A DNA stretch of 64,000 nt from Escherichia coli. Lineage in GTDB: Bacteria > Pseudomonadota > Gammaproteobacteria > Enterobacterales > Enterobacteriaceae. The translations under genes were made by a program, and so were the position numbers. The stretch lies in assembly GCF_003790525.1 (NCBI RefSeq), contig NZ_CP033635.1. One strand, written 5' to 3'. Shown in pieces: positions 34,853 to 35,555 of this stretch. Positions within the stretch are counted from its first letter, which is position 1. Every line of letters starts with the position of its first letter. The notes under the pieces were generated by a model, which was given only the letters and a program-made list of their open reading frames with translations, was not told where the DNA came from and did no database searches.

Positions 34853-34875
34853 CCCTGCTTCGGCGGGGTTTTTTT
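34853..34875 (+). terminator. Putative rho-independent terminator of narGHJI
   Basis: ccctgc-ttcg-gcgggg hairpin followed by T7 directly after narI stop. Confidence 0.65.
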
Positions 34876-34889
34876 ATGGGCACGGTGCG

Positions 34890-35192
34890 GGGTGAGTTGT
34901 CGGATGCGCTTCGCTTATCCGAACTTCAGGGGAGGATATTTTAGGTCCGGTAAACGCGGTGCCATCGGGCAGAATTAGCTCGGAGTAACAGGTTTTGAGT
35001 ATTTCAGGAAGTAATGGTGGTGGGGGAAGGATTACTAGCGCTGCGCGCTTCACCCTTCGGATCGTTGCCTGCGGCAACGCTTTCTCGCTGGCGCTCGAGT
35101 CGCACCTTGGTCGAAGCTTCTCATCCCTCCCCGCATGGGCAGAATATTTAATTGCGGATTCGTTTGAGAGTTCACGGACTTTTGAAAAGTGA
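34890..35192 (-). repeat. tyrT operon distal repeat region (carries copies of the tRNA 3' end; expected location of rtT RNA / tpr)
   Basis: tggtggtgggggaaggatt (3' end of tRNA-Tyr, reverse complement) recurs at about 35012 and again at the tRNA starts about 180 bp apart; exact tpr/rtT boundaries not resolved. Confidence 0.5.
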
Positions 35193-35277
35193 TGGTGGTG
35201 GGGGAAGGATTCGAACCTTCGAAGTCGATGACGGCAGATTTACAGTCTGCTCCCTTTGGCCGCTCGGGAACCCCACC
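35193..35277 (-). tRNA. tyrV: tRNA-Tyr (GUA), promoter-distal copy
   Basis: Reverse complement matches the canonical tRNA-Tyr sequence GGTGGGGTTCCCGAGCGGCCAAAGGGAGCAGACTGTAAATCTGCCGTCATCGACTTCGAAGGTTCGAATCCTTCCCCCACCACCA. Confidence 0.9.
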
Positions 35278-35311
35278 AGGGGTAATTCAAATTTTGAGGT
35301 AATGCTTGAGA

Positions 35312-35396
35312 TGGTGGTGGGGGAAGGATTCGAACCTTCGAAGTCGATGACGGCAGATTTACAGTCTGCTCCCTTTGGCCGCTCGGGAACCCCACC
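35312..35396 (-). tRNA. tyrT: tRNA-Tyr (GUA), promoter-proximal copy
   Basis: Identical 85-nt tRNA-Tyr sequence on minus strand, 34 bp from the other copy. Confidence 0.9.
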
Positions 35397-35446
35397 ACGG
35401 GGTAATGCTTTTTACTGGCCTGCTCCCTTATCGGGAAGCGGGGCGC

Positions 35447-35475
35447 ATCATATCAAATGACGCGCCGCTGTAAAG
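35447..35475 (-). promoter_or_regulatory. tyrT promoter (-35 TTTACA, -10 TATGAT, GC-rich discriminator)
   Basis: Minus-strand reads TTTACAGCGGCGCGTCATTTGATATGATGCGCCCCGCTTCCCG; 16-bp spacer; AT-rich upstream region. Confidence 0.7.
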
Positions 35476-35555
35476 TGTTACGTTGAGAAAAATGAACTGG
35501 TTGCGTAATTTTCATCCGTAACGGATTAAAGGTAACCAGTTATTTTTGCTGGCGA

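Follow-up and report, generated by a model that had tools for sequence, protein, structure and literature searches.

The tyrosine-tRNA locus of the window, i.e., the whole 64,000-bp stretch of E. coli DNA analysed here, is the chromosomal tyrT-tyrV operon, and with a probability of about 90% its arrangement is one of many natural structural alleles that form a series generated by repeat exchange, the compact form of which arose by deletion of a spacer unit (S). The window allele belongs to the commonest spacer type in the species and is hence ordinary; both the locus and its variable-number repeats were already known and annotated. No new kind of element is involved, and what is new is quantitative, namely the frequencies of the alleles, the polarity of change, and its recurrence. 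Positions 34700-35600 were 100% identical to the sequence of E. coli SMS-3-5 (NC_010498.1), and the RefSeq annotation at the locus already includes purU, two tRNA-Tyr genes, one RtT sRNA, and narI. The operon is located on the minus strand between purU, whose stop codon is at 35556-35558 (minus-strand reading), and narI; the purU-narI interval of the window allele is approximately 710 bp between the flank queries.

The promoter scan placed a tyrT promoter at 35447-35474 (minus strand), with the -35 hexamer TTTACA (35474-35469) and the -10 hexamer TATGAT (35452-35447) separated by a 16-bp spacer and together matching the consensus at 10 of 12 positions. A GC-rich discriminator, GCGCCCC (35440-35446, minus strand), was read from the sequence downstream of the -10 hexamer and ahead of the presumed start site. 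Near-consensus hexamers, a 16-bp spacer, and a GC-rich discriminator are the sequence characteristics of a stringent tyrT-type promoter, and the original prediction, which had named the two hexamers and the discriminator, was correct on this point. By sequence and length count, the 5' leader of the precursor (35397-35439, minus strand) would be approximately 43 nt long if transcription starts at G35439, a position that we assume from knowledge of K-12. The purU-tyrT intergenic region is identical to that of K-12 over 159 of 159 bp. How the tyrT discriminator functions has been described, and the K-12 promoter, which has the identical sequence, is subject to ppGpp/DksA repression and depends on FIS and supercoiling (PMC8422995). 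By identity with this promoter, expression of the window operon would be expected to be of the stringent, supercoiling-sensitive stable-RNA type.

Two tRNA-Tyr(GUA) genes (anticodon gta) were found by ARAGORN on the minus strand, one in the tyrT position (35312-35396, also annotated in RefSeq) and one in the tyrV position (35193-35277). They are identical over 85 nt, score 53.4 bits each with the Rfam tRNA model, and are 34 bp apart, as had been predicted. The inter-tRNA spacer (35278-35311, minus strand; TCTCAAGCATTACCTCAAAATTTGAATTACCCCT) is the same as the 34 bp preceding tyrV in K-12.

The second tRNA gene is followed by a single RtT unit, or tRNA-linked repeat (35015-35192, minus strand), composed of 159 nt and a 19-nt copy of the tRNA 3' end and delimited by an Rfam match, the 178-bp spacing, an exact 19-mer, and the annotated RtT sRNA. 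The Rfam match (RF00391; 35015-35145, minus strand) extends over model positions 1-130 of 130 and reaches 118.8 bits (gathering score, 45; E = 4e-25). The 19-mer AATCCTTCCCCCACCACCA occurs exactly three times (0.00 occurrences expected by chance), at both tRNA 3' ends and at 35015-35033, with start-to-start spacings of 119 and 178 bp. At least one repeat of approximately 180 bp carrying a copy of the last 19 nt of the tRNA had been anticipated, and it was found; the further statement that the repeat begins with this copy reflects a choice of register, as in the RtT RNA the copy forms the 3' end. The array is closed by a 25-nt copy of the tRNA 3' end and its flank (35009-35033, minus strand), which is identical to 35187-35211 at 24 of 25 positions and constitutes the "0.14" partial repeat. 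In total, the locus contains three nested classes of direct repeats, with lengths of 85 bp (tRNA genes), 178 bp (RtT units), and 19-25 bp (copies of the tRNA 3' end).

By definition, tRNA-linked repeats (TLRs) directly follow a tRNA or rRNA gene within the same operon and share their 3' 18-19 nt with the 3' end of that gene (PMC8144298). The window unit adjoins the tRNA gene downstream in the operon, and its 3'-terminal 19 nt are those of the tRNA. It resembles RF00391 and the TLRs in its score, which is far above the threshold over the full model, in its adjacency to a tRNA, and in its 3' 19 nt; nothing categorical differs, the differences being confined to copy number and a few substitutions. 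A conserved stem of 9-10 bp, in which 5' GGGGA(A/G)GGAU pairs with the tRNA-derived AUCCUUCCCC, is kept in the window unit. The RNAalifold consensus of 18 units recovered the conserved closing stem and showed little covariation in this small set, one pair being changed on both sides; it gave no information over and above the Rfam model. A candidate reading of the RtT unit as a degenerate tRNA-Tyr copy beyond its 19-nt tail was set aside as weakly supported, the local alignment score of 13 being reached by 16 of 1000 shuffles. The tmRNA and STnc100 Rfam matches, with E values near 0.15-0.7, were taken as chance.

The RtT unit also contains a tpr-like ORF of 24 codons (35050-35124, minus strand), identified from the translation inside ORF 35050-35175, so that the assignment of this region to rtT RNA and tpr proved right, though with 24 codons instead of the 29 of K-12. 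The intact 29-codon tpr ORF of K-12 (MRSFDQGSTRAPARERCRRQRPEGRSAQR) was not found in the window, where it is altered by S8A, E15K, and P22S and by a change of R25 to a stop codon; the shortening results from a C-to-T substitution (GGGCGA to GGGTGA). The TGA that ends the window ORF is also present in unit D2 of an ST69 strain.

The array is followed by a unique tail (34872-35008, minus strand) that includes a probably REP-like palindrome, CGGATAAGCGAAGCGCATCCG, and has weak residual similarity to the start of the repeat unit (alignment score 2.5; shuffle mean -7.2, sd 3.5). An intrinsic terminator of the convergent narGHJI operon was placed by the terminator scan at about 34850-34881 (plus strand). 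An intrinsic terminator for the tyrT transcript was sought on the minus strand at the locus and none was found, which is consistent with the Rho-dependent termination, inside the repeats, that is described for the K-12 tyrT transcript.

In E. coli K-12 MG1655, the gene order is tyrT, a 175-bp unit ending in a copy of the tRNA 3' end, the same 34 bp, tyrV, and three 178-bp units. Hereafter, S denotes the divergent 175-bp RtT spacer unit of the K-12 type and D the downstream units. The window and K-12 loci share the position between purU and narI, the promoter and leader, the tRNA-Tyr genes, the 34 bp before the second tRNA gene, a unit of the RtT family, and the 19-nt copy of the tRNA 3' end. 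They differ in the spacer (34 bp without S in the window, 209 bp with S in K-12), in the number of downstream units (one and three, respectively), and in the score of the unit, that of the window being the lowest among the E. coli units examined (118.8 versus 129-137.5 bits). Counted in the Egan-Landy register, the 178-bp repeat is present in 1.14 copies in the window versus 3.14 in K-12; the latter figure appears in the title of Egan & Landy, and the repeats were described in 1978. The two structures are therefore not identical, and the suggestion that repeat number and tRNA spacing depart from the classical description was upheld by this comparison. The sole spacer difference between the window and K-12 is the 175-bp S, bounded by the 20-nt direct repeat AATCCTTCCCCCACCACCAT, of which one copy is the tRNA 3' end and the other terminates S.

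To determine the direction of change, outgroup loci were collected via members of the PurU cluster and exact-protein contig look-ups. All three Salmonella enterica loci (L020-L022) have the long form, and E. albertii has both the compact (L014 and L017) and the long (L015, L016, L018, and L019) forms. Genomes of the K. oxytoca group have a compact spacer of 35 bp, from one to three tRNA genes, and from none to three RtT units. In the tree of 36 units, S units from Salmonella, E. coli, and E. albertii formed one clade (84-96% identity); S and D units share 64-71% identity, and the D units group according to species. S is thus an old element with positional orthologues in Salmonella, E. albertii, and E. 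coli, and its absence from the window is a deletion. Judged from these sequences, the long form is probably ancestral to Escherichia and Salmonella, and the compact form a precise secondary loss of S. The compact and long alleles of E. albertii have a common species-specific spacer haplotype, with D1 units that are 99% identical; the loss of S happened independently in this species, and since both forms occur on one haplotype, the deletion recurs. Within E. coli, the direction was deduced from the unit phylogeny and a handful of outgroup loci rather than from a species-tree reconstruction, and either recurrent deletion or recombinational spread of one deletion may account for the distribution.

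A reversed polarity, in which the compact form is ancestral and the long spacer of K-12 is a derived insertion produced by unequal crossing-over that put an RtT unit between the tRNA genes, is the strongest alternative, although we regard it as rather unlikely. It agrees with the compact form of all four K. oxytoca-group loci read and with the Klebsiella units, which are approximately equidistant from S and D and S-like in their 3' half, so that a Klebsiella-like unit could be the source of both S and D. However, Salmonella, E. albertii, and E. coli have orthologous S units at the same position; any insertion would therefore predate this clade, and the compact form within E. coli would still be a secondary loss. 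The presence of E. albertii compact alleles on a long-allele haplotype also argues against it. At a deeper node, the compact form could be ancestral, with S a later gain on the Escherichia/Salmonella stem.

Several features of the outgroup loci were observed besides the spacer. The RtT units of the K. oxytoca group (L010-L012) have a 3' half (…CGGCCCGAAGGGTGAGGAGCGAAGCGACGAATAATCC…) identical to that of the Escherichia S type and a D-like 5' start; these Klebsiella units are either mosaic or near the ancestral form. The window architecture of two tRNA-Tyr genes 34-35 bp apart and one RtT unit is present in one K. oxytoca-group locus (L012) and one E. albertii locus (L014), both of which differ from the window in having species-specific spacer and unit sequences. 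E. albertii also differs from the window by a 2-nt variable-loop variant of the first tRNA and a 7-gene island after the array. In E. albertii (L014 and L015, 4002-4086) and Salmonella (L020, 4297-4381), one tRNA-Tyr gene has TC changed to CA at positions 50-51 in the variable arm; it looks like the tRNA-Tyr2 (tyrU-type) variant, and the tRNA-Tyr pair is consequently non-identical in both. Salmonella enterica GCA_007628635.1 (L022, approximately 4002-4183) has an extra degenerate chimera upstream of a normal T-S-T-D-D array, in which the mutated 5' part of a tRNA-Tyr gene (T) is joined to an S-like RtT unit at the shared motif CTTCGA..AAGGTTCGA. The 24-mer TATGATGCGCCCCGCTTCCCGATA of the tyrT promoter, unchanged in all E. 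coli loci read, was scanned against a 100,044-species contig collection; the single match, a K. oxytoca contig end cut just after the first tRNA, suggests incomplete coverage of the scan and carries no biological signal.

The conservation of S was estimated by comparing K-12 (L001, 1787-1961) with Salmonella (L020, 4087-4262). S is 89-90% identical between E. coli and Salmonella, the corresponding values being 83.6% for purU DNA (54% at third codon positions) and 72-78% for D units; despite this high conservation, about 65% of E. coli genomes lack S. A hairpin, CCACA-GCGA-TGTGG in K-12 (L001, 1794-1807), begins 7 nt past the CCA end of tyrT. It reads CTACA-GCGA-TGTAG in Salmonella, a compensatory change, and TCACA...TGTGG in E. 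albertii, with a U-G pair; it is missing in compact alleles, including that of the window. An identity exceeding those of purU and the D units, the compensatory change in the hairpin at the start of S, and the persistence of both forms in two species all speak for selection, acting for instance on tRNA-Tyr dosage, processing efficiency, or a function of the S RNA, as the force that maintains S and the copy-number variation in place of near-neutral instability. We consider this improbable, because so many E. coli genomes lack S and some strains lack RtT units altogether, and because tRNA-like ends and processing signals may explain part of the high conservation. In addition, tRNA-linked repeats, of which 22 occur at ten K-12 loci, have no known function (Rudd 1999, as summarised in PMC8144298), and the sole phenotype ascribed to rtT was retracted (PMC8144298). 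Still more doubtful is the reading of S as a distinct RtT paralogue with its own function, marked by the covarying GNRA hairpin, whose presence or absence would be a long-lived, possibly selected polymorphism of E. coli and E. albertii altering the processing or dosage of the tRNA-Tyr precursor. The conservation of S across genera, combined with its frequent loss, is the sole mildly unexpected aspect of the locus.

Allele frequencies were calculated for 5,426 complete E. coli genomes from RefSeq, a base that is clonally biased. The S unit was detected by megablast in 1,920 genomes (35%), with a query too divergent from the other units for cross-matches, and the contiguous tRNA-34 bp-tRNA junction in 2,909 (54%), with a 124-nt query and an E-value limit that only a contiguous match could pass. 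Up to approximately 597 genomes had neither and carry a single tRNA gene or other forms. An alternative count of compact junctions by coverage of at least 80% (5,418 genomes) was discarded as invalid, since nearby pieces were joined into one place. Counting the full architecture (two tRNA genes, 34 bp, and one unit) by BLAST thresholds was likewise dropped, as the scores of partial and full alignments overlap, and its frequency was therefore taken from a 60-genome sample. An evenly spaced sample of 40 genomes contained 22 compact and 13 K-12-type alleles and 4 with a single tRNA gene.

The lengths of the purU-narI interval were obtained with a flank-only query (purU side and narI side) in 60 evenly sampled genomes. 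The interval of 710-711 bp, corresponding to the window architecture, was found in 10 of the 60, that of 889-890 bp in 7, and that of approximately 1,241 bp, corresponding to the K-12 architecture, in 13. Other classes measured 529, 769, 829, 884, 1,063-1,067, 1,244-1,247, and 1,417-1,423 bp, and in 12 genomes the flanks were more than 2 kb apart. The E. coli alleles that were fetched and parsed included two tRNA genes without D, one tRNA gene with two D, three tRNA genes (34 bp apart) with one D, the compact spacer with one to five D, and the long spacer (T-S-T) with one to three D. Overall, E. coli has from zero to five downstream units, and the number of tRNA-Tyr genes at the tyrT locus varies from one to three among natural isolates. 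At least four spacer haplotypes were observed among the compact E. coli alleles, one of them a 33-bp B2 type similar to those of Salmonella and Klebsiella.

These counts bear on the strain-specific repeat contraction that had been proposed, i.e., on a loss of repeats confined to SMS-3-5, with the K-12 arrangement as the species-typical state. The window does have 1.14 rather than 3.14 copies and no K-12 spacer unit, and S is ancestral, its absence being a loss; contraction thus stands for the spacer. The strain-specific part, however, is very improbable, since the compact junction outnumbers S, the exact architecture was found in 10 of the 60 sampled genomes from unrelated sources, and the compact form also occurs in E. 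albertii and Klebsiella. The "classical" structure of K-12, with its 209-bp spacer and 3.14 repeats, is in the minority, at about 35% of complete E. coli genomes, and differences from K-12 at tyrT should therefore not be read as strain-specific. Even less credible is a collapse of tandem repeats in the SMS-3-5 assembly: tandem 178-bp and 119-bp repeats are collapse-prone and one K. oxytoca draft contig breaks off precisely at the first tRNA, but thousands of independently finished genomes, many of them long-read, have the junction in contiguous form, the discrete length classes differ by whole units, and a collapse would spare S, which is only 64-71% identical to D.

The preferred reading, an allelic series produced by repeat exchange, suggests the following model. 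One sigma-70 transcript would carry two copies of tRNA-Tyr(GUA) 34 nt apart and one RtT unit, and tRNA-processing nucleases would presumably release the tRNAs and the RtT RNA from this polycistronic precursor; for the window genome, the release of RtT is supported by the RefSeq note "processed from tyrT transcript" and the K-12 literature. Unequal recombination or slippage among the nested repeats probably generates the allelic series of one to three tRNA genes, S present or absent, and zero to five D. Exchange between the 85-bp tRNA genes would change their number, which in compact alleles would yield one or three genes at a 119-bp period, and exchange between the 178-bp units would alter how many RtT units are present. 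Loss of S, or of everything after a tRNA gene as in E. coli ZH193, could result from exchange or slippage between the 19-25-nt tRNA 3'-end copies. The three nested repeat classes account for all alleles seen. The window allele would correspond to the ancestral T-S-34bp-T-D... arrangement from which the 175-bp S was deleted precisely between the 20-nt repeats, with one D kept. Strong fitness effects of the allele differences are probably absent.

Knowledge of the tyrT locus, its repeats, and their instability dates back to the 1970s. A 175-bp rtT variable-number repeat separates strains of S. Paratyphi A (PMC2658671), and a laboratory supF strain lost one tRNA gene together with RtT in a doublet-to-singlet change at tyrT (PMC12584984). 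Both cases are gains or losses of whole units at this locus, like those in the E. coli alleles described here; they differ in being events among close strains or in the laboratory, whereas the present variation was surveyed throughout the species and across genera. In a comparative study of 27 genomes, rttR was treated as multi-copy and lost in some strains (PMC3318445).

Additional rearrangements were observed around the array. In E. coli S88 (B2), an IS4-family transposase is located between the RtT unit and narI (L003, 11297-12496), and this is one reason for the purU and narI flanks being more than 2 kb apart in about 19% of genomes. E. coli Ecol_224 has an otherwise window-like allele with IS621 (IS110-like) inside the REP-like palindrome 3' of the array (L027, 2309-3289). 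Among the plasmid-labelled records of the E. coli collection, 12 places matched the tRNA pair and 18 matched the purU/narI flanks. In E. coli ZH193 (ST131), which has a single tRNA-Tyr gene and no RtT unit, foreign genes directly follow the tRNA: an approximately 7-kb cluster of seven genes (L029, 10611-17492) takes the place of the REP/terminator tail of approximately 190 bp. The replacement starts approximately 6 nt past the last copy of the tRNA 3' end. The cluster encodes a KAS III-like protein, an NAD-dependent epimerase, an MBL-fold hydrolase, an F390-synthetase-related protein, a PAP2 phosphatase, a sterol desaturase-family protein, and a fatty-acid desaturase-family protein, and the same seven genes were found in E. 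albertii (L014-L019) from about position 4400.
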